From: Candidatus Doudnabacteria bacterium
GTDB taxonomy: Bacteria > Patescibacteriota > Doudnabacteria > UBA920
Reading direction: 5' to 3'
Assembly (NCBI GenBank): GCA_020850635.1
Contig: JADZEH010000024.1
Coordinates: 8,617-72,616 of the forward strand
Length of the DNA: 64,000 nt
Numbering within the stretch: position 1 is the stretch's first letter; each line of letters starts with the position of its first letter. Below are positions 4,845 through 60,838 of this stretch, piece after piece. The notes beneath the pieces are model-generated. The model did no database searches and was not told the origin of the DNA. It saw nothing but the letters and a program-made list of their open reading frames with translations. The position numbers and the translations under genes are program-made.

Positions 4845-5165
4845 ATGGATGAAGTAAACGTAACCGAAGAAACCTTTGACCAGGAAGTTCTTAAGTCAAA
4901 TGTCCCAGTGCTGGTCGACTTTTGGGCAGAATGGTGTGGGCCATGTAAAATTGTTCACCCTATTTTAGACGAAATTCGTCAAGAATATAGTGGTAAAATC
5001 AAGATCGCTAAAGTAAACGTGGATGAGCAAAATGCTCTCGCTGGACGATATAACGTGATGAGTATTCCGAATATGAAGATTTTCAAAGGTGGTCAACAAG
5101 TTGGTGAAATTGTTGGCGCCGCTCCTAAACAGTCTATCCTTGCCGAACTCTTGAAACACATGTAA
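4845..5165 (+). CDS. trxA: Thioredoxin
   Basis: WAEWCGPCK active site. The ORF opens at 4806 but the conserved start is the MDEVNVTEETF methionine at 4845. Confidence 0.9.
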   Translation: MDEVNVTEETFDQEVLKSNVPVLVDFWAEWCGPCKIVHPILDEIRQEYSGKIKIAKVNVDEQNALAGRYNVMSIPNMKIFKGGQQVGEIVGAAPKQSILAELLKHM

Positions 5166-5167
5166 AT

Positions 5168-5194
5168 AAAAACCCCGCTCACAAGCGGGGTTTT
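5168..5194. terminator. Bidirectional intrinsic terminator between convergent trxA and the ATPase gene
   Basis: A-run, ccccgc/gcgggg stem with 6-nt loop, then T-run. Confidence 0.6.
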
Positions 5195-5198
5195 AAAT

Positions 5199-7115
5199 TT
5201 AGAATTGGTGGACTTCACCGGGTTTTAAGACTTGAGGGCTTTCCTCAGCTGGTTTTGGTGGCTGTGGTACGGGCTGTGTGGCTGGTTCTGCTGGTTTATT
5301 GATTGCAACTTGAGACACAGCACTCTCCACTTTATTTAACAAATCGTCAGTCTTTGATTTATCAATTGTGTGTACGGTATCCCAAATAGGGTTTTCGTGT
5401 TTTTTGGGTTGTGGTTTTGGTTGACTTGGTCGGTCAGTACTTCGTCTTTGTGGTGGTCTATTTCGATCGCCGTGTCTTCGGTTATCATCAGAACGATGTT
5501 CTGAGCGTGGTTGATTATTACTACTACCACGATCTCTGCGTGAATCTCTGCCGCCAGATGAACGAGTGCGGTTCGGGTCTGAAGATTGCTCAACTTTAGG
5601 AATCAAAGGCTTCTCCTTGTATTCATCTTTCGGTTCAGCTGAAGGAACAGCTGAAGCCATGGCCTTGGGTTCGGTAGGACGTGGAGCGTCGGGAACTGTT
5701 TCCGAAGCTGTAAATGGTTTTTGTGGTGCTAAAATTTCTTGAATTTGACTTTTGCGTTCTGTGGTTGGGTTTTCATCAGCTCTTTCTTCGGTGCCAACTA
5801 ATACACCTGCTTGTTCATGGTATTCAGCGCCCATCCAACGACTAATTTTTTCTTCAACTTCTGCAACGTCATTACCATATCGTTCGCGGGAAACTTTAAT
5901 TACCTTCTCGGCATTTCCAGTTTTCCATAAGTCATTAACGGGCATCGTTACAGCAGAAAAAGGATCACTGGCTACACCATTGATCATCAATTTTAAAATA
6001 ATGTTGTACTTCGGTAAGTTCACAATATCGGTTGGAGTAAAGATTGGGTCGAATTCTGTTTCTAGGAATTCGGCATCGGCTGCGCCAACTCGGAATATTA
6101 CCATGGTACCAACGTTACCAAACACAGCATCGCGAACCTTCGTACTGTTGCGATCGGGAACTAACTGACCAATATACTGGTGACCCATTATCAAATTCAG
6201 TCGGTATTTACGAGCTTCGCTCAAAATTGTAGCGAAACTTTCGGTCACAAAGTTTTGAAACTCATCTACATATAAATAGAAATCTTTACGTTCTTCTTCG
6301 GGGATATCAACGCGAGACAAAGCCGCCAATTGAAGTTTGGTAATAATCATCGCACCAAGCAAAGCTGAGTTGTCTTCACCAACTTTACCTTTAGACAAAT
6401 CCAAGAGCATGATCTTTTGGTTATCCATCATACTACGTAGGTCTATAGTAGAGCGTGGTTGACCGATAATATTACGAATAATACCGGATGACAAGAACTG
6501 TCCAACTTTGTTTTGAATTGGGGCTACCGCTTCTGTTCGATACTTTTCAGCATAGTTGGCGTATTCATCAACCCAAAAAGCGCGGACCATAGGGTCTTTG
6601 ATGTTGTCGACAATCTTTTTACGATACTTTTTGTCGACGTACATGCGAACAATACCAAGCATGGTGTTACCCGGACTTTCGAGCAAAGCCAAAATGGTGT
6701 TGTTAAGAATGTATTCCATACGAGAGGACCAGGTGTTGGCCCAAATCTTGGTAAACACACCCATCAAACCAGAAGCAACTAAATGTTTGTACTTGGTATC
6801 AACGGCTTCAAGAATGTTAAACGCGATTGGGTGATCTAAATCAGCAGGGTTAAAGTAAATAACGTCGTTAACACGACTACTTGGAACATAATCGAGGATT
6901 TTAGCGACTGAATCACCATGTGGGTCGATAAAACACACACCGTGACCATTTCTGATGTCCTGGATGACCATATTTTCCATCAAAGTCGTCTTACCCATAC
7001 CGGTTTTACCGATAATGTACATGTGACGACGACGATCATCAGCTTTTATACCAAAAGGCACTTCTCGATTGCGGAAGTTGGTTTTAGCGAAAAAGTTAAT
7101 GTCAGTATTGGCCAT
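5199..7115 (-). CDS. VirD4/TraG/TraD-family coupling-protein-like P-loop ATPase with a long low-complexity basic C-terminal tail
   Basis: Walker A GKTGMGKT, CFIDPHGD, Walker B YLYVDEFQNF, and a SEARKYRLNLIMGHQYIGQL motif like the TraG-D_C domain. No N-terminal TM helices. The last ~170 aa are rich in R/S/D/P/Q. Confidence 0.6.
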   Translation of the reverse strand: MANTDINFFAKTNFRNREVPFGIKADDRRRHMYIIGKTGMGKTTLMENMVIQDIRNGHGVCFIDPHGDSVAKILDYVPSSRVNDVIYFNPADLDHPIAFNILEAVDTKYKHLVASGLMGVFTKIWANTWSSRMEYILNNTILALLESPGNTMLGIVRMYVDKKYRKKIVDNIKDPMVRAFWVDEYANYAEKYRTEAVAPIQNKVGQFLSSGIIRNIIGQPRSTIDLRSMMDNQKIMLLDLSKGKVGEDNSALLGAMIITKLQLAALSRVDIPEEERKDFYLYVDEFQNFVTESFATILSEARKYRLNLIMGHQYIGQLVPDRNSTKVRDAVFGNVGTMVIFRVGAADAEFLETEFDPIFTPTDIVNLPKYNIILKLMINGVASDPFSAVTMPVNDLWKTGNAEKVIKVSRERYGNDVAEVEEKISRWMGAEYHEQAGVLVGTEERADENPTTERKSQIQEILAPQKPFTASETVPDAPRPTEPKAMASAVPSAEPKDEYKEKPLIPKVEQSSDPNRTRSSGGRDSRRDRGSSNNQPRSEHRSDDNRRHGDRNRPPQRRSTDRPSQPKPQPKKHENPIWDTVHTIDKSKTDDLLNKVESAVSQVAINKPAEPATQPVPQPPKPAEESPQVLKPGEVHQF

Positions 7116-7156
7116 AGTTGTAGTATAAAGTTATTAGCTTAAAGTAGCTAATATTA

Positions 7157-8479
7157 TTAGTAGTCGCCAGTAGGCAAATCCACAGGAGGCTGAGCTTTTT
7201 TGCTTTCGACTGAGGCCACTGGTGGCTGAGTTGGGTTTAACGACAATGGTAAATGGAATATCGTTGCGATTTCTTCAGCATTTAAGACAGGCATAGGATT
7301 ACCAATAAAGATACTGCGCTCTTTATACCCAGTGAACATGTATTTCTTCAGGATTTTCTTTTGTCTATCTACGTAAGGTTTTTCAAGGGTTGGTGAAAGC
7401 TTGGCCTTAGGATCGGTCCAAGTTTTTTTAGTATCTGGTTTTAAAGCGTTTAAAGTCCCTGAACCGAGAACGCGCATCGCCCCAACCATTAATGCTTTCT
7501 TAGCTGGGTCAAATTTATCTTTAGGGGCAACGTACATGTGACGAACTTTAGTATAATAGCCAGCCTTAGAAGTTTTATTCTGCACAGCATTAACTGCGGT
7601 TTTTTCAACCTCAGTCATGTTGAGTAAGTTATTTTTCTGATCATTTTTTTGCTCAGGTTTGACCTCTGAAACAAGTAAACTAGAAAATTTAAAATCTGCG
7701 ACAAAGTCAAACGGTGTCATTAAGATATTCAAGAGGGAAACTTTTTTTGGTAATTTTTCGCCAAGAAGAAGTTTTGATTTTTTTAGGGCTTCTTCGCGCC
7801 AACCTTCAGCATCGCCCGCTGGTTGAATAATCACTTGCATACCATAAAATTCCCAAGGTTGCATTTTACCCATGGCTTCGAAAACTGGTGCTAAGGGGTC
7901 GATAATTTTTTGTTCGGCAGTTGGATGTTCAAATTCTTTCCAAGTTTTAATCGGAATCGACTGGTCGTTGACAAGAGTAAATTCTGTACCCCAAAGATCA
8001 AAATCACTGGTTTCAGGGTCATACTCGATGTTTTCCATGTAATCATTAACTTCCACAACTTCTGCTGCCGGATACTGACCATAAATAGCCGCTTCAACCA
8101 ACTCTTTGGTATCAATCGGCGCGCGAATAATGAAGTTAACCTTACCACCTAGGCTCACGACTTCTAAGGAATACCATAGCATCACCTTACCTTCAATATA
8201 CTTGTTGGCAAAAGTCAGGCTAGTAAATAAGGCGTGGAGTTGATTAAAGATTTGTTCAACTGCCAGAGTACTCGTAAGGTTTTCGCGAGGAACTTTAATA
8301 CTCAAAAACACCCATTTTTGACTAGCAATAAACTGGGTGACAATTTCAAAGTAATATAGTTTATAGAGAATATAGATGCCGACGCCAATAAAGGCGACCC
8401 AACCACCGTGCGCAATAATGTACCACAATGGTCCAAAAATATCCCCCAACCCTGCAAACGGATTTCCAAAAATTCCCAT
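7157..8479 (-). CDS. Hypothetical membrane protein (N-terminal TM segments), co-oriented 41 bp upstream of the ATPase
   Basis: 440 aa. Hydrophobic N-terminus (WYIIAHGGWVAFIGVGIYILY). No recognised motif. Confidence 0.5.
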   Translation of the reverse strand: MGIFGNPFAGLGDIFGPLWYIIAHGGWVAFIGVGIYILYKLYYFEIVTQFIASQKWVFLSIKVPRENLTSTLAVEQIFNQLHALFTSLTFANKYIEGKVMLWYSLEVVSLGGKVNFIIRAPIDTKELVEAAIYGQYPAAEVVEVNDYMENIEYDPETSDFDLWGTEFTLVNDQSIPIKTWKEFEHPTAEQKIIDPLAPVFEAMGKMQPWEFYGMQVIIQPAGDAEGWREEALKKSKLLLGEKLPKKVSLLNILMTPFDFVADFKFSSLLVSEVKPEQKNDQKNNLLNMTEVEKTAVNAVQNKTSKAGYYTKVRHMYVAPKDKFDPAKKALMVGAMRVLGSGTLNALKPDTKKTWTDPKAKLSPTLEKPYVDRQKKILKKYMFTGYKERSIFIGNPMPVLNAEEIATIFHLPLSLNPTQPPVASVESKKAQPPVDLPTGDY

Positions 8480-8514: not shown

Positions 8515-9600
8515 CTAAACTAGAGCGTATAGATTCTTTGCAACCTTTTTAAATAGCTTCTTGTTTGATAGACCAACTAAGATAGTATTCTTTTTTACCA
8601 AACGACGTTCAAGTACAGCGTCTACTATTTCGTCTCGGGTCATTGGTTGACCTTTTTGCTCTAAGATCTCTTTAATCATATCAGAAACAACGCCAGGTTT
8701 ATATCCCCATTCAGCTAAAGCGTAAATTCCGCGACCAACAAGAACAAAACGAGTGTCTTTGATAAGTTTGTTATGAACAGTTTCTTTGTAAGCAGTACGG
8801 TTGTCGAGCTTATGTTTGTTAATAAGTTCAGTAATAGTAGCGTAATGTTCTGGTTTCTTGTGGTGACGCATGACCAAATAAGCTTTATCACCAACGTCTT
8901 TTGGATGAATTTCACTCCAATCGCTGAGACCAAACTCACCGAAGACATTTTGTTCAACTGGTTGGGCGGCGTGAAGGAAGTTAATTAAAACTCGGTCATG
9001 TAAATCTTGATGATGTTTGTTAAATAACTCAGTTTCCTTAACCTTTTCTAGGAAATGCTCAGTATGCATAGGCTTGCCATGCTTGTTGAACATAGACTTT
9101 ACTTCGGAAATAAAGTCTTTCAATAAATCTTTGTTAAAACTTGGCATTTTCCAAGATGGCTTGATGTGAGCCTCGTTATCAACAAGTTCTAATTCAGAAA
9201 TGAGGTGTAAAATAAAACGAATTGAGTTTTCTTGCTGAGGAGTTTGACTGTTAAGTAGTTCTAGTAAACGTTCTTCAGAGATAATTCCACCATGCTCTAA
9301 AACCATATTCACGATTAAATCACGAGCGAGTGAAAATACTTGTTCGTCATTGGCATTACGTTTTAAAGCTCCAAGAAGCTCCTTTTCAATTTGGCGAACG
9401 CGTTCACGGGTTAAGCCTTGTTCTTCACCAACAGTTTTCAGAGTGGCAACAGGACTACCGTTTAAACCATAACGCTTAATTAAGATGGTTTTTTCACGTT
9501 CTTTTAGAGGTTCTAAAAGCTTGGAGACAATCAAAGCATGCTCGAATTTCTCGAGGGTCTTTTGCTGTTGCGTATCAATAATTTGGTCTAAAATTCCCAT
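8515..9600 (-). CDS. DNA-binding protein with N-terminal sigma-70 region-4 HTH and C-terminal HARE-HTH-like domain
   Basis: LTRERVRQIEKEL matches sigma70 r4.2. The C-terminal ...RFVLVGRGIYALAEWGY resembles the HARE-HTH domain (RpoE delta N-terminal domain). Confidence 0.5.
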   Translation of the reverse strand: MGILDQIIDTQQQKTLEKFEHALIVSKLLEPLKEREKTILIKRYGLNGSPVATLKTVGEEQGLTRERVRQIEKELLGALKRNANDEQVFSLARDLIVNMVLEHGGIISEERLLELLNSQTPQQENSIRFILHLISELELVDNEAHIKPSWKMPSFNKDLLKDFISEVKSMFNKHGKPMHTEHFLEKVKETELFNKHHQDLHDRVLINFLHAAQPVEQNVFGEFGLSDWSEIHPKDVGDKAYLVMRHHKKPEHYATITELINKHKLDNRTAYKETVHNKLIKDTRFVLVGRGIYALAEWGYKPGVVSDMIKEILEQKGQPMTRDEIVDAVLERRLVKKNTILVGLSNKKLFKKVAKNLYALV

Positions 9601-9754
9601 ATATTTGTGATATTCTAAACAGATTTTTCAGATGTTCTAAAGTATAACATAAACTTTTATATAAGTCAAATAAACCATATAATACTGTTTTGGCCTGTGT
9701 ATAACCATTCACCCACCCTTAGAACCCTGTTATCGCCGGAAAATAGTATCGTTC

Positions 9755-14719: not shown

Positions 14720-15742
14720 TTATTGAATACAAATATAGTTCCAGGTTTCGGCTCCGCCAGTTGTAGAGGCAACGAAATTTAAGGTAAGAGCTGTGGTAGA
14801 CGAAGTTACATAAACCTTACCGGCATCTACTTGGCCAGTGTCCGTGGCTGGGCTTACAGTGCATACCGGAGCCGATGCGTAAGCGGTTTGGAAAGTAACA
14901 ACTAAAGTCCCTGCTCCAGCGCCGACAGTTGCTGAAATTTTTCCTTTAGTATCGCTACTTCCTGAACTCAAAGTGGCACCGCTATAACCAGCACCTGTAA
15001 CGCTGGGTGTTGGGGCTGTTGTCTGTGATGAAATCAAGTGAGAAGTCGCTGGTCCAAGTGTAACGTTAGTACCCACAGTTACACCACTTGCCGCGATAGT
15101 AACAACGGCCGTGGTTGGTCTAGCTGCAAAGCCACCCGTAAAACCAATTCCGATAGTACTAGCACTGTGTGGGTAAATTGCACCAACATTACCTGGGGTA
15201 TTCAGAGTATAACCAATTCCGGATCCTCCATAGAGAATAATTCCACCCGTACCTGCTCCATTTGCTTCTGACCCAATTGCCAGAGTACCATTACTACTCG
15301 CGCTTGCTACTGAACTTGCCGACAGTCGCATTATGGTGTCTGGGCTAACTGGATTTGCTCCTGGAGGTGACCACAGAAAATCGAATGATGGACTACCAGC
15401 AAAATCACCCATTGAAATATTAGTCCCTAACACACTCGTATCATCTAAATTGTACGAATTATAGGTAGCTGTTGGGGACATATTAAAAGTAAACTGTGAC
15501 AACCTTATCAAATCTGAAAGCACAGAAGAGGTGGCCATATGAGCATACATACCAGTTTCAGCAATTGGGATCCTTAAAGTTCCCGTTAAAGTAGTGTCCC
15601 CGGTGATTGCAACTGATGTCCCTTGCAAAGCAATTAAGCCGTCCGATGTTATCGTAGTCGAGCCAACTGTTAAAGCCGCTTGTGCGGATTTTGCACTAGT
15701 AAATAATAGTGCAATAAAAATTAAAAAATAGAGTTTTTTCAT
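14720..15742 (-). CDS. Secreted Gly/Thr/Ser-rich repeat protein (paralog 1; candidate surface/adhesin beta-solenoid)
   Basis: Signal peptide ...SAKSAQA. Conserved AALTVG...ITSDGL block shared with the 30749-31600 product. Low-complexity G/T/S/A repeats. C-terminal Cys pair (VCTVSP...NYICIQ). Confidence 0.6.
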   Translation of the reverse strand: MKKLYFLIFIALLFTSAKSAQAALTVGSTTITSDGLIALQGTSVAITGDTTLTGTLRIPIAETGMYAHMATSSVLSDLIRLSQFTFNMSPTATYNSYNLDDTSVLGTNISMGDFAGSPSFDFLWSPPGANPVSPDTIMRLSASSVASASSNGTLAIGSEANGAGTGGIILYGGSGIGYTLNTPGNVGAIYPHSASTIGIGFTGGFAARPTTAVVTIAASGVTVGTNVTLGPATSHLISSQTTAPTPSVTGAGYSGATLSSGSSDTKGKISATVGAGAGTLVVTFQTAYASAPVCTVSPATDTGQVDAGKVYVTSSTTALTLNFVASTTGGAETWNYICIQ

Positions 15743-30292: not shown

Positions 30293-30295
30293 ATA

Positions 30296-30621
30296 CTTTT
30301 AGCAAACTCGTAAGCCGAATTCTGTTTCTAAATAATCATCTATCTTGTCCTGCTGTTACCACCAGGATCATGCTGCCTACCAAATTTGGCATTGCACTCA
30401 GGTAAGGATTTGGCCGTTTCACCCTCTACATTACTGCAAAGGTTCACCCCGAAGGGTGCTCTTGGCTTGCGCCGCCAGCGTCACTGTTCGCACCTCTAAA
30501 ATTACTTTCGACGGGAATTACCCGCTACCCTTGTTAATGACTCTATAGTGGCCATCAACTAAGTGTTCGGACTTTCCTCTCTTAGCCTTGCGGTAAGAGC
30601 GATTATTCGATTTGCTAAAAG
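30296..30621 (-). ncRNA. rnpB: RNase P RNA (bacterial type; M1-like ribozyme)
   Basis: The minus strand carries GAGGAAAGUCCGAACAC (P4 5-prime strand), GGGUGAAACGG, ACAGAAUUCGGCUUAC (P4 3-prime strand). Terminal P1 pairing is CUUUUAGCAAAU / GUUUGCUAAAAG. No ORF. About 326 nt. Confidence 0.8.
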
Positions 30622-30748: not shown

Positions 30749-31600
30749 TTAAGGACTGGCATCAGCCCAAGCTGCGCCGGTACAAATCCACAAAATAGCG
30801 GCATCAGTCTCAACGTAAATTCTTCCAGCTTCTCCAGCTGCGTCACAATCGGTACCGGTAGGGGTAGCTGTTCCTGAAGGGATTTCTAGTAAACCAGCAA
30901 TGTTTGTAGTAGAGGTTGCGTGACCTATGTTAACTACATCTGTGGAAGGAACACCCTGAGTAGCAACAATGTTAACGGTTCTTGTACCAGCTAAAGCAGC
31001 TGCATTAGAAATGTTAACAGTTGTATTTCCACTACCCAGTGTATTGTTTGCAATGTTAAGAGTAGTTGTTGTGCCAGCGGCATTTACACCATTGGCAATA
31101 TTTACGGTTTGAATGTTTGTGCCACTTAAGTTAGCAGAACCAATATTAATAATATTTGAAGTACCGTTTGATTGACCAATAGTAATGGTACCTGTCTGAG
31201 CTGTTCCACCGATAGTGATTGTACCAGTAGTCATCGCGGCACCAATAGCAACGGATCCAGCGGTTTGAGTATTACCGATAGCGATAACGTTAGCTCCGGT
31301 TCCACCAACGCTAATGGTTTTAACCACAGCGGCACCAGTACCAATGTTAATTGTCTGTGCGGCTGTTCCAGTTCCCAAGCCAATGGTACCAGTTTGTCCC
31401 GTACCACCTAAAGTCAAAGTTCCAGCAACTGCAGCAGAACCAAGAACGATATCAGAACCTGCAGCAGCTTCCATTGATAAAGCACCATCGCTAGTAACAG
31501 CTAGGGCACCTACAGTCAAAGCTGCTCCGGCAGAACCCGGAACCATCAACGCGATAATTGCCAAACTCGCGGTGGCAATTTGCATTCCTTTTAGTTTCAT
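30749..31600 (-). CDS. Secreted Gly/Thr-rich beta-solenoid-like repeat protein (paralog 2)
   Basis: Signal peptide ...GSAGA. AALTVGALAVTSDGAL block shared with paralog 1. About 14-aa periodic T-x-T-I-x-I-G / N-I-x-N repeats. C-terminal CD...GEAGRIYVETD...LWICTGAAW. Confidence 0.6.
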   Translation of the reverse strand: MKLKGMQIATASLAIIALMVPGSAGAALTVGALAVTSDGALSMEAAAGSDIVLGSAAVAGTLTLGGTGQTGTIGLGTGTAAQTINIGTGAAVVKTISVGGTGANVIAIGNTQTAGSVAIGAAMTTGTITIGGTAQTGTITIGQSNGTSNIINIGSANLSGTNIQTVNIANGVNAAGTTTTLNIANNTLGSGNTTVNISNAAALAGTRTVNIVATQGVPSTDVVNIGHATSTTNIAGLLEIPSGTATPTGTDCDAAGEAGRIYVETDAAILWICTGAAWADASP

Positions 31601-50010: not shown

Positions 50011-50934
50011 TTAGTAGAAATCAGTGTCTGGCCTGTCTAGACTTGAGCCTCCAACTGAGGGCAAATCTTCTAAAATTAAATTATTACCATTTAAAGAATT
50101 GGTTTCAGCAAACACTTCAACTCGAGCCACTTCGGACTCATACAAACCTGGCCATCGTTGAACGTAAGCTCGTCTTTCGCTCGAACGAACACTAAACTCA
50201 CTGCGTTCACTTATTCCTATAATCTCACCGCTGGCATCATACAACACAAAAGTGATACGAACTGTACCCAAACGATACGGACTTTCGTTGACAATAACTC
50301 CCTCCGCAACAAATTGGAGCGGATTTACTTCTTCGTATGTGGTTGGGGCAGGGGTCCGAATAACGATTTTAGGGATTGCAGCTTTCTTTTGCCAATTTAC
50401 TTGAGACAGAACAACTTTTGCCGAAGTTATCACTTCAGTTGAAACAACGTTTGAAACAACAATGTACTTTTCTTGATCGGGCAACAAAAACAAACCACCC
50501 TGCTGAGTTTTAACGACATCACCACTGTTATTAAAGAACGTGAATTCGTAACGCGCATCTTGCAAAGCTAAATCCAAATTTCTATTTTTGATTTTGGTAT
50601 AAACCGAGTATAGGTTATCACCACTGCGAATAACTTTAGCAGTCCCAACTTCAACATCTTGACTTGATTGGAATGCGGGCGCAGCCACAACTCTTAAATC
50701 TTTGTACTGCCAGTTCCAAAATGCGAAAGACCCATACTTCGCAATAAAAAATGCGGGGATCATGGCCACCAGACAGACAATTAAAACCAATCGCTTACCT
50801 CTTGGAAGTTCTTGAAAACTTCGCAAAACCACGAGAATGATTTCTTGAATTTTTAGCCACAGATCTTGAAGCATTTTAAAGTTTTTTCGAGTTTTTGTTT
50901 TAACTTTAGGTTCTATTAATAGTATAACAAACAA
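50011..50934 (-). CDS. Hypothetical single-pass membrane protein upstream of the SEDS gene
   Basis: 307-aa ORF with one TM helix near the N-terminus. Probable start at the internal MLQDLWLK. No recognised domain. Confidence 0.45.
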   Translation of the reverse strand: MFVILLIEPKVKTKTRKNFKMLQDLWLKIQEIILVVLRSFQELPRGKRLVLIVCLVAMIPAFFIAKYGSFAFWNWQYKDLRVVAAPAFQSSQDVEVGTAKVIRSGDNLYSVYTKIKNRNLDLALQDARYEFTFFNNSGDVVKTQQGGLFLLPDQEKYIVVSNVVSTEVITSAKVVLSQVNWQKKAAIPKIVIRTPAPTTYEEVNPLQFVAEGVIVNESPYRLGTVRITFVLYDASGEIIGISERSEFSVRSSERRAYVQRWPGLYESEVARVEVFAETNSLNGNNLILEDLPSVGGSSLDRPDTDFY

Positions 50935-59541: not shown

Positions 59542-60207
59542 CTAATTGGAACGCTGTCGGGCTTTTCTGGCGCTAGGATGATGTTGTGCTACCAACTTTC
59601 GTTCGTGCTTAGTAATCACCGCTTGCATTCGTTTTTGCACATCTGCTACAGTACCGATCCCGCTCACTTCAATAAATGTATATTCTTTTTTAAAAAACTT
59701 AATAACTTCGGCGACATTTTTGCGATAATAGCTTTGGCGGTTCTTTAAAGCCGCAACTGTATCGTCGGGACGCTTCCCATATTTCCCAGCAAAGTAACCC
59801 AAACGACCTGACATTCGTTTTACCGTTTCAGAAACTGGAACTTTCAAATATATAACCAGTGGTTTGACGCGATAAGTTTCGCGAAGCCATTTTCTGACTA
59901 AACGAGCTTCACCAACCATTTTGGGATGACCATCAAACAAAATCCCTTTAGAGACTGGTGTGGCATGAATTACTTCGTCTAAAATTTCTCGTACAATTTT
60001 TGTTGGTGTGAGTTTGCCTTCGTCATTAAAGACTCGCAGCATCTTATCCAACGCTTTATCTTTCTTACGGCGACGCATCAACTCTGCTCCCATGTCAAAA
60101 TCATATAACTTGTATTTTTTGACGAGCAACTTTGCTTGAGTGGCCTTACCTGCAGCAGGGTCACCAAGTAAAATTATATTTAATGGATGCGTAGACTTTT
60201 TAGACAT
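59542..60207 (-). CDS. Adenylate kinase family protein (NMP kinase paralog 2)
   Basis: P-loop GDPAAGKATQA and ILFDGHPK (DGFPR-like) motif. Short form without zinc lid. Confidence 0.75.
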   Translation of the reverse strand: MSKKSTHPLNIILLGDPAAGKATQAKLLVKKYKLYDFDMGAELMRRRKKDKALDKMLRVFNDEGKLTPTKIVREILDEVIHATPVSKGILFDGHPKMVGEARLVRKWLRETYRVKPLVIYLKVPVSETVKRMSGRLGYFAGKYGKRPDDTVAALKNRQSYYRKNVAEVIKFFKKEYTFIEVSGIGTVADVQKRMQAVITKHERKLVAQHHPSARKARQRSN

Positions 60208-60838
60208 AGTCGAGATGAAGCGCGGTGTTAATTGCCACTCTCACTTCTGGGATAGAAGGAGTTCCATTGATTTCGATATGAGTAGTTTCCTTACGAAGTA
60301 AATCTATCACTGGTAAAGTTTCTTTGTCATACATCTGGAGTCGATACTCAATAGCTTCCCTGGTGTCATCTTTGCGAAATTCATGATGAGCTCGTTCCAA
60401 AAGTCTGGCTACAGAAATATCGTGGGGAATATCGAGGAAGATAGTAACAAAGTTCGTTCGGCCATGTTCTCGTAAATAGCTCAACAAAAACTGAGCTTGG
60501 CCAACGCGTCTGGGTACTCCATCGAAAATAATCCCTCTATCAGTTGGTAACTCCTTTAACTTCTCAACCATAACTTTGTAAAGATCTTCATCGTCTAACA
60601 AATGACCGTTATTGATGAGTTCAGCGATATGCTTTCCTAAAGGTGTGTCTTTCTGAGCTTCTTCACGTAAGATTGCCCCCATTTCAAAGTGATAAAAACC
60701 AAGTTGTTCTGCGAGCTGACGTGCCTGAGTCCCTTTGCCTGAGCCTTGGGGGCCAATGAAGAAAATTATATCAAGATCCATGAAGTGTGTTTCTATGTGA
60801 ATTGCTTTTACTATAGAGGATTTTGAGAAGATTATCAA
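60200..60838 (-). CDS. adk: Adenylate kinase
   Basis: GPQGSGKGTQA P-loop, IIFDGVPRRVGQA NMP-binding motif. Probable start at the internal MDLDIIFFIG. Confidence 0.85.
   Translation of the reverse strand: MIIFSKSSIVKAIHIETHFMDLDIIFFIGPQGSGKGTQARQLAEQLGFYHFEMGAILREEAQKDTPLGKHIAELINNGHLLDDEDLYKVMVEKLKELPTDRGIIFDGVPRRVGQAQFLLSYLREHGRTNFVTIFLDIPHDISVARLLERAHHEFRKDDTREAIEYRLQMYDKETLPVIDLLRKETTHIEINGTPSIPEVRVAINTALHLDYV

Follow-up and report, generated by a model that had tools for sequence, protein, structure and literature searches.

In this study, we analysed a window of 64,000 nucleotides from a Candidatus Doudnabacteria bacterium (contig JADZEH010000024.1) and focused on two adjacent genes on its minus strand, which encode an ATPase and a membrane-anchored protein of the family DUF8128. 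In the reading that we favour, with somewhat better than even confidence, the genes at 7157-8479 and 5199-7115 each encode one half of a single type IV coupling protein (T4CP) of the DUF8128 class, which would be the partner of a type IV secretion system (T4SS) in an accessory or conditional role. The features of the pair are as follows.

5199-7115, minus strand: gene of a T4CP-type ATPase of 638 amino acids (aa), the TrwB/VirD4-like motor half (open reading frame (ORF), Pfam, PDB profile and Foldseek)
7116-7156, minus strand: spacer of 41 bp between the two halves (sequence)
7157-8479, minus strand: gene of a DUF8128 (PF26449) protein of 440 aa, the anchor half (translation; the homologues carry PF26449)
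8363-8428, minus strand: N-terminal transmembrane helix of the 440-aa protein, residues ~18-39 (mean hydropathy 1.73)
7247-7276, minus strand: motif EE(I/L)ATxxH(F/L)P in the C-terminal part of the 440-aa protein (conserved columns)
7172-7192, minus strand: motif QPPxxLP following the preceding motif (conserved columns)

The initial annotation of this DNA described an ATPase lacking its own membrane anchor and, 41 bp upstream, a co-oriented 440-aa gene for an N-terminally membrane-anchored protein, and both points agree with the ORFs and the hydropathy. No transmembrane segment was found in the ATPase, whose highest 19-residue Kyte-Doolittle mean is 1.45, and the mean of the N-terminal helix in the 440-aa protein reaches 1.73. 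Both genes are considered real because each has thousands of full-length homologues. No recognisable Shine-Dalgarno sequence was seen on inspection of the spacer at 7116-7156. It had also been proposed that the upstream protein supplies the anchor, which is borne out by homologues in which both proteins are one polypeptide.

A tblastn search against plasmids with the ATPase core as the query found relatives in 492 records. In the plasmid NZ_CP108778 of Embleya sp. NBC_00896, the relative forms the C-terminal half of a protein of 812 aa (WP_331738717.1), which is annotated as 'type IV secretory system conjugative DNA transfer family protein' and whose ATPase is ~29% identical to that of the window. 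The N-terminal half of this protein contains one transmembrane segment and the motif series of the window's 440-aa protein, which ends as ...SVPELAALAHLPLD...VVPPARIP directly ahead of the ATPase; the shared motif ELAxLxHLP...PPxxxP precedes the ATPase in the fusion. When the N-terminal half of the Embleya protein was used as the query, 83 actinobacterial proteins were obtained, most of which carry PF26449 and many of which are fused to PF10412, PF01935, PF12696, PF19044 or PF01580. The actinobacterial fusions, as in Embleya, have the same two domains in the same order and the same Pfam family, PF26449, as the pair; they differ in that the Embleya protein is one polypeptide inside a conjugative cluster, whereas the window encodes two polypeptides.

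Using hhalign, the DUF8128 family of the candidate phyla radiation (CPR) was aligned end to end with the actinobacterial N-domains over 360 columns, with a probability of 82% and an E-value of 1e-5. A concatenated profile of 16 CPR pairs, in which DUF8128, an artificial linker and the ATPase were joined, matched the Embleya protein with a probability of 100% and an E-value of 1e-48 over 695 colinear columns, where the artificial linker falls within the natural Embleya linker. Because the concatenated CPR pair is colinear with a single Embleya protein, the pair in the window is regarded as a split T4CP, and the existence of fused homologues indicates that the two genes act as one unit. Among the best 150 representatives of the DUF8128 family, which are 208-656 aa long, no fusion to the ATPase was found.

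The gene order around the Embleya fusion is TrbL_4, PrgI, XF1762, VirB4-like, DUF8128-T4CP, Replic_Relax and NlpC/P60, where the VirB4-like gene has the domains P-loop_TraG, AAA_10 and TraC_F_IV. The fusion gene occupies the coupling-protein position of a monoderm conjugative cluster.

The motor half consists of a conserved core, described by the following features, and a C-terminal tail, which is treated below.

5805-7115, minus strand: conserved ATPase core, residues 1-437 (invariant columns, identity)
6987-7010, minus strand: Walker A motif GKTGMGKT, residues 36-43 (translation)
6912-6935, minus strand: CFIDPHGD block, residues 61-68 (translation)
6261-6281, minus strand: Walker B motif YLYVDEF, residues 280-286 (translation)

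The Walker A and B motifs, the CFIDPHGD block and the TraG-D_C-like region, all named in the initial annotation, were confirmed by translation and Pfam. TrwB_AAD_bind (PF10412) matches residues 25-345 with 52.2 bits against a cut-off of 20.5, T4SS-DNA_transf (PF02534) matches with 20.4 bits, which is over its cut-off, and TraG-D_C (PF12696) matches residues 280-351 with 22.8 bits, which is barely over its cut-off of 22. The best partial NCBIfam matches are to TraD and VirD4-like models, all far under the family cut-offs. The ATPase has at least 8000 homologues. In alignments of 30-35 CPR sequences, more than 200 ATPase columns are invariant, including K42, D284 and E285, and both Walker motifs are intact and invariant in the family.

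When all PDB sequences were searched with a profile built from 30 homologues, TrwB (6e-5) and DotL/IcmO (1e-3) were the only meaningful matches, and neither HerA nor FtsK appeared. In the Foldseek search with an AlphaFold model of the ATPase core, T4CPs (Cag-beta, TrwB and DotL) fill ranks 1-19, where the TM-score to TrwB is ~0.5, and no VirB4 or FtsK chain is found at E <1e-3. A helical block of the model between the Walker motifs, residues 107-217, which may correspond to the all-alpha domain that T4CPs have inserted in the nucleotide-binding domain, has a predicted local distance difference test score (pLDDT) below 55, and the Foldseek alignments with TrwB span ~410-420 columns. By both the PDB profile and the fold ranking, the best matches are of the VirD4/TrwB kind and not of the FtsK/HerA kind that would have spoken against the initial annotation: the ATPase is a VirD4/TrwB-like T4CP motor, not a HerA/FtsK-like one.

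TrwB of R388, VirD4, Cag-beta and DotL, which are the best sequence and fold matches of the window ATPase, are like the pair in the P-loop domain, in which the window ATPase may also have the helical insertion, and in the TraG-D_C region. In classical T4CPs, the transmembrane anchor is part of the ATPase polypeptide, whereas the window ATPase has none and the anchor is the separate DUF8128 protein, which carries a ~380-aa VirB4-like domain that classical T4CPs do not have. Unlike classical T4CPs, the pair also lies among housekeeping genes of the chromosome, and neither a relaxase gene nor T4SS genes are close to it.

The 440-aa protein itself gave no Pfam or NCBIfam match at E up to 10, where the Pfam copy scanned did not contain PF26449. 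In the databases, PF26449 is precomputed on nearly all of its homologues, from 73% identity downwards, and the identical entry has no precomputed match; the UniRef name for the PF26449 family is DUF8128. The family has a mean column identity of 62%, an N-terminal helix and a nearly invariant C-terminal segment, N-x-E-E-(L/I)-A-T-x-x-H-(F/L)-P ... P-P-x-x-L-P. DUF8128 is mentioned in no paper found by the literature search.

The profile of the 440-aa protein gave no match in the PDB sequence search. Its AlphaFold (AF2) model reached a pLDDT of 77 and a predicted TM-score (pTM) of 0.73, and the 13 significant PDB matches of this model in Foldseek are all TrwK/VirB4 chains of the R388 T4SS; the next matches are ferredoxin-like alpha+beta proteins, with no other P-loop ATPases. 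Because the 440-aa protein has no P-loop, the match is assigned to the non-ATPase N-terminal part of VirB4, and we infer from the model that the DUF8128 fold resembles this part. VirB4 (TrwK of R388) is the only protein with a significant structural match to the DUF8128 model. VirB3-VirB4 fusions have an architecture of transmembrane segment, N-domain and P-loop, which the order of transmembrane segment, N-domain and ATPase in the pair resembles; the attached ATPase is T4CP-like, unlike VirB4. In sequence, there is no signal from the pair to TrsD or TrsE of pSK41: hhalign of the CPR N-domain family against the single pSK41 sequences of TrsD, TrsE and TrsK gave no usable signal, and that of the CPR ATPase family against single pSK41 Trs sequences gave matches in the P-loop or Walker-B region only. 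TrsD of pGO1/pSK41 is a VirB4-N-terminal-like protein.

Because the order in the pair is a single N-terminal transmembrane segment, DUF8128 and then the ATPase, the DUF8128 domain is placed in the cytoplasm, and the Lys/Arg residues after the transmembrane helix of the window protein agree with this orientation.

The pair is preceded by a third gene, with which it forms a conserved block.

8515-9600, minus strand: sigma-70 region 4/HARE-HTH gene of 361 aa, first in the conserved block (Pfam)
9361-9516, minus strand: sigma-70 region 4 (PF04545), N-terminal in the 361-aa protein (Pfam)
8707-8886, minus strand: HARE-HTH (PF05066) in the HARE-HTH/winged-helix C-terminal part of the 361-aa protein (Pfam)

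In a scan of one genome per species, at least 597 species have a relative, and the synteny was compared in the 80 loci most similar to the query, the best of these at least 597 species. The 80 loci come from metagenome-assembled genomes of Doudna-, Moran-, Kerfeld-, Magasanik-, Buchanan-, Nealson- and Parcubacteria. In 75-76 of the 77 loci with enough upstream DNA, the ATPase gene directly follows the DUF8128 gene, and in 71 related loci the spacer between them is often 1-20 bp or is replaced by an overlap of 1-8 bp. The sigma-70 region 4/HARE-HTH gene is ahead of the pair in 69 of the 80 loci. SecD-SecF is ahead of that gene in 40 of the 80; because it is found in only these 40 and is absent in Southlakia epibionticum, its adjacency is regarded as incidental.

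The median identity of the ATPase core to the window is 65.5% over the 80 loci. In the 38 loci with all five genes, the median identity is 66% for the ATPase, 56% for SecF, 55.5% for SecD, 45% for the sigma/HARE-HTH protein and 35% for DUF8128, and the conservation of the ATPase core exceeds that of SecD and SecF of the same loci. Judged from gene order and identity, the three-gene block appears to be a strongly conserved chromosomal operon across CPR classes, and the word 'orphan', which had been applied to the ATPase, does not fit it. The sigma-70 region 4/HARE-HTH protein may be a CPR-specific factor associated with RNA polymerase.

Some copies are found outside this arrangement. The sole real exception among the 77 loci is L077:9995-11908, an ATPase of 637 aa with 58% identity, upstream of which there is neither DUF8128 nor sigma/HARE-HTH but unrelated ORFs of 252 and 693 aa. 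Relatives on viral contigs amount to 3 in 2.9 million (IMG/VR), and with these three matches only, a viral or mobile reading was rejected. At L084:5956-7254 (IMGVR_UViG_3300015370_000561), a tail-less copy of the ATPase core of 432 aa with 59% identity lies on a phage-like contig with a holin, an M23 peptidase, a PLD-family nuclease and a PD-(D/E)XK nuclease, again with no DUF8128 or sigma/HARE-HTH gene upstream; this suggests that a presumed CPR phage has, in a rare event, acquired the motor. The closest plasmid relative, L081:7992-9179 of Sulfitobacter mediterraneus (NZ_CP081110; 39% identity, E 9e-95), is a 395-aa gene that stands alone, without a DUF8128 partner; it is flanked by a DUF3768 gene on one side and transposases on the other, and the alphaproteobacterial plasmid is non-mobilizable. 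The same type, non-mobilizable, is assigned to 417 of the 492 plasmid records that contain an ATPase relative.

In Southlakia epibionticum ML1, the pair corresponds to SEML1_0293, a core, Patescibacteria-enriched protein of 921 aa with PF10412 at 402-719 (Wang et al. 2023, PMC10633639). Because it has 921 aa with the ATPase domain at 402-719, it is regarded as the fused form. Directly 5' of it on the same strand is SEML1_0294, which has Sigma70_r4 and HARE-HTH domains and is essential and Patescibacteria-enriched (PMC10633639). SEML1_0293 has the same Pfam triplet on its ATPase and the same sigma-70 region 4/HARE-HTH gene upstream as the window; it differs in being fused, with Cas9 and GNAT genes downstream and no SecDF, whereas the window pair is split and has SecDF upstream. 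For Saccharibacteria, the orthology, fusion and synteny are taken from published tables and not from aligned sequence.

A second protein of S. epibionticum, SEML1_0142, is a T4CP/FtsK-like 'TraM recognition domain' protein of 1019 aa, located by gyrBA and essential (PMC10633639); the window contains no paralogue of it. It may explain why about two T4CP homologues per Patescibacteria genome are counted in the literature.

The ends of the putative operon and the tail of the ATPase are described by the following features.

9641-9669, minus strand: promoter-like site TTGACT-17-TATACT with TG (consensus scan, pattern match only)
5164-5194, no strand assigned: hairpin AAAACCCCGC-TTGTGA-GCGGGGTTTTTATTT (read from the sequence)
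5202-5804, minus strand: disordered C-terminal tail of the ATPase, residues 438-638, ~200 aa (composition)
5382-5396, minus strand: tail motif ENPIW (conserved in close relatives)
5202-5231, minus strand: terminal tail motif VLKPGEVHQF (conserved in close relatives)

The promoter-like site lies inside the 193-bp gap after secF and is a candidate operon promoter. The hairpin is perfect and GC-rich (CCCCGC/GCGGGG), is flanked by an A-run and a T-run, and is missing from the list of the consensus scan; it is placed between the ATPase stop codon and the convergent thioredoxin gene (trx) and is likely a bidirectional terminator that closes the operon and is shared with trx. The promoter-like site after secF and the hairpin with its T-run are together consistent with a three-gene transcript.

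A charged, disordered tail had been noted in the initial annotation; this holds, but its length is ~200 aa (438-638) instead of ~170 aa. Pro, Ser, Arg, Lys, Glu and Asp are abundant in it, 33% of its residues are charged, and its centre, at residues 513-562, is Arg-rich. A disordered tail is a universal feature of the orthologues, with a median of 185 aa beyond the core. In close relatives, P576, I577, W578, P632 and G633 are nearly invariant. The tail ends with xPG(E/Q/D)xxx(F/I/L) in 36 of 71 orthologues, including VLKPGEVHQF of the window, and an APKKF-type motif is found instead in 22 of the 71. TraD and DotL have partner-binding C-terminal tails that recruit an adaptor or substrate, and the tail of the window ATPase recalls them, being likewise long and having a conserved terminal motif, as is generally known of TraD and DotL.

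On the basis of these results, the following mechanism is proposed. The DUF8128 protein would be held in the cytoplasmic membrane by its single N-terminal helix and would expose a cytoplasmic domain with a VirB4-N-terminal-like fold. Its C-terminal EELATxxHFP...PPxNLP segment, at which the fused homologues run into the ATPase, would dock the soluble ATPase; the docking surfaces may be this segment and the N-terminal ATPase strands at residues 6-31, which are invariant; both flank the natural linker. TrwB is a hexamer that forms a ring at the membrane, and by analogy the ATPase is expected to form a hexameric ring close to the membrane. The disordered tail with its terminal motif may have a function like that of the TraD and DotL tails, namely the recruitment of an adaptor or substrate. 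The sigma-70 region 4/HARE-HTH, DUF8128 and ATPase genes would be co-transcribed from the promoter after secF to the terminator shared with trx. The likeliest partner would be the T4SS of the monoderm type (MPF-FATA-like), which in most Patescibacteria is encoded at another place on the chromosome, and the pair would have an accessory or conditional role, not an indispensable one.

Several results weigh against a coupling protein that partners with a T4SS. In the window, the Pfam scan of ORFs of at least 100 aa found no VirB4, relaxase, pilin or other T4SS family, which agrees with the initial annotation as to the first three, and no VirB4-, PrgI-, TrsD- or relaxase-like ORF lies within 10 kb of any of the 80 loci. 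The structural evidence is also limited: the model of the ATPase core has a pLDDT of 63 and a pTM of 0.65, a low confidence, probably due to an over-uniform alignment, and it served for fold ranking only, and the matches of DUF8128 to TrwK, with E-values of 2.5e-5 to 4.4e-4 and a probability of 1.0, have TM-scores of only 0.34-0.39 and were reported without the target range in VirB4. Across Patescibacteria, only 148 of the 5,713 VirD4-type T4CP homologues are near virB4, and these homologues occur in more assemblies (2,918, 96%) than VirB4 does (2,417 of 3,035, 80%); that study also noted that the S. epibionticum homologue is non-essential and raised exaptation as a possibility (Quinonero-Coronel et al. 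2025, PMC12102498). In S. epibionticum, the T4SS cluster SEML1_0006-0019 is essential, and no recognisable coupling protein or relaxase is encoded in it (PMC10633639). SEML1_0293 was non-essential at all three time points of the transposon sequencing (Tn-seq; PMC10633639 Table S1), in which its normalised reads drop from 5817 to 2940 and 1372. If a T4SS is the partner, this non-essential result would indicate a conditional role of the pair. Membership of the pair in a dispersed T4SS is plausible in view of the wide occurrence of VirB4 (80%) and T4CP homologues (96%) in Patescibacteria assemblies (PMC12102498), and it is weakened by the non-essential Saccharibacterial orthologue.

Much of the same evidence bears on the possibility that the pair is an exapted, T4SS-independent machine, in which a tethered ring ATPase moves or remodels nucleic acid alone or via another channel, for example in DNA or RNA uptake or export at the host interface or in handling of the cell's own chromosome, together with the co-transcribed sigma-70 region 4/HARE-HTH DNA-binding protein. 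The three-gene block is kept from Saccharibacteria to Parcubacteria and ABY1-type lineages and never adjoins T4SS genes in the 80 loci; the wider distribution of the T4CP family than of VirB4, the Arg-rich centre of the tail and the conservation of the core above SecD and SecF also point in this direction. However, in S. epibionticum the HARE-HTH/sigma gene is essential and the T4CP gene is not, which argues against a single shared indispensable function, and the fused actinobacterial homologues are in classical conjugative clusters. Furthermore, no gene for an alternative channel is conserved by the pair, as SecDF accompanies it in only half of the 80 loci and is missing in S. epibionticum. 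We regard such a machine as the main rival reading, unlikely though credible.

The structural matches of DUF8128, which are to TrwK/VirB4 chains only, raise the further question of whether the pair is a split second VirB4 that acts in T4SS or pilus assembly instead of substrate recruitment. The order of transmembrane segment, N-domain and P-loop, which mirrors that of VirB3-VirB4 fusions, and weak NCBIfam matches to VirB4 models are consistent with this. The ATPase, however, has T4CPs as its foremost matches in the Pfam, PDB sequence and fold searches, and its model gave no VirB4 chain at the E-value threshold mentioned above; TIGR00929 scores 16.5 bits against a cut-off of 643, and there is no Pfam match to AAA_10 or P-loop_TraG. 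In addition, the Embleya cluster holds a separate VirB4-like gene beside the DUF8128-T4CP, and Patescibacteria have a distinct VirB4 clade of their own (PMC12102498). A split VirB4 is thus given only a slim chance.

A helicase of the HerA/FtsK type or an anti-phage defence ATPase (mad8 of MADS, or HerA systems) was also considered, since Pfam DUF87 (PF01935) matches the ATPase with 38 bits, PADLOC reports mad8 (MADS) on it with E 1.4e-15 together with weak HerA matches, and HerA defence complexes enter the Foldseek list of the core model from rank 20. T4CP models and structures nevertheless score better throughout, no Pfam match to FtsK_SpoIIIE (PF01580) is found on the window ATPase, the neighbourhood lacks further components of MADS, Sir2-HerA or similar systems, and the universal syntenic chromosomal distribution is unlike that of a defence island, which makes this reading very improbable. 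PADLOC also reports MzaA on the 361-aa sigma-like protein, in region 4 only; the mad8 and MzaA matches are judged to be generic domain homology, and the former suggests that mad8 of MADS is a T4CP-like ATPase.

The chance that the pair is a decaying remnant of an integrated conjugative element, an alternative offered in the initial annotation, is close to negligible. The lack of relaxase, VirB4 and pilin genes in the window speaks for it, but it needs a patchy distribution and relaxed selection, neither of which is seen. Against it stand intact ORFs, invariant catalytic residues, a GC content like that of the surroundings, housekeeping neighbours, a synteny fixed in about 70 of the 80 loci, which represent many CPR classes, the conservation of the core above that of SecD and SecF, and the near absence from viral contigs.

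The remaining gene content of the window is of the housekeeping type and includes mraY, a dacA-like gene, trx, secDF, secA, cls and mur genes, as well as enolase, rpsB-tsf, prfA, dnaE, thrS, RNase P RNA and tRNAs; some twelve small ORFs are without a Pfam match. Two adenylate-kinase-family (ADK) genes are arranged in tandem on the minus strand and overlap (59542-60207 and 60200-60838). The bacterial RNase P class A RNA at 30295-30618 (minus strand) scores 108.6 against the Rfam gathering threshold of 100 and is 324 nt long, where the model has 367 positions. The ORFs at 14720-15742, 30749-31600 and 50011-50934, all on the minus strand and encoding 283-340 aa, have no Pfam match at E up to 1e-4.

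The family itself is known and widely annotated, and it had been reported that T4CP homologues are present in 96% of Patescibacteria assemblies and almost never near virB4 (PMC12102498). What is new, as far as we found, is the split versus fused architecture with DUF8128, the VirB4-like fold predicted for DUF8128, and how deeply the three-gene block is conserved. DUF8128 and the ATPase together are the true unit, which is made as two proteins in many CPR classes and as one in Saccharibacteria and Actinobacteria, and it rides in a putative, deeply conserved operon behind an essential sigma-like/HARE-HTH gene; to label the pair an orphan remnant is therefore a mis-annotation. The proposed docking segment, the terminal motif of the tail and the Walker residues provide handles for S. 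epibionticum, the one genetically tractable system. The link of DUF8128 to VirB4 and T4CPs may be of use to annotators and to researchers of T4SS evolution. A broader possibility, which we hold to be distinctly unlikely, is that the operon encodes a Patescibacteria-wide non-conjugative nucleic-acid translocase and that DUF8128-T4CPs preserve an ancestral VirB4-like N-domain. Such a translocase might feed host or environmental DNA or RNA into or out of the auxotrophic epibionts, via a T4SS or without one, and, if this were true, DUF8128-type T4CPs would be a living intermediate between VirB4 and classical VirD4.

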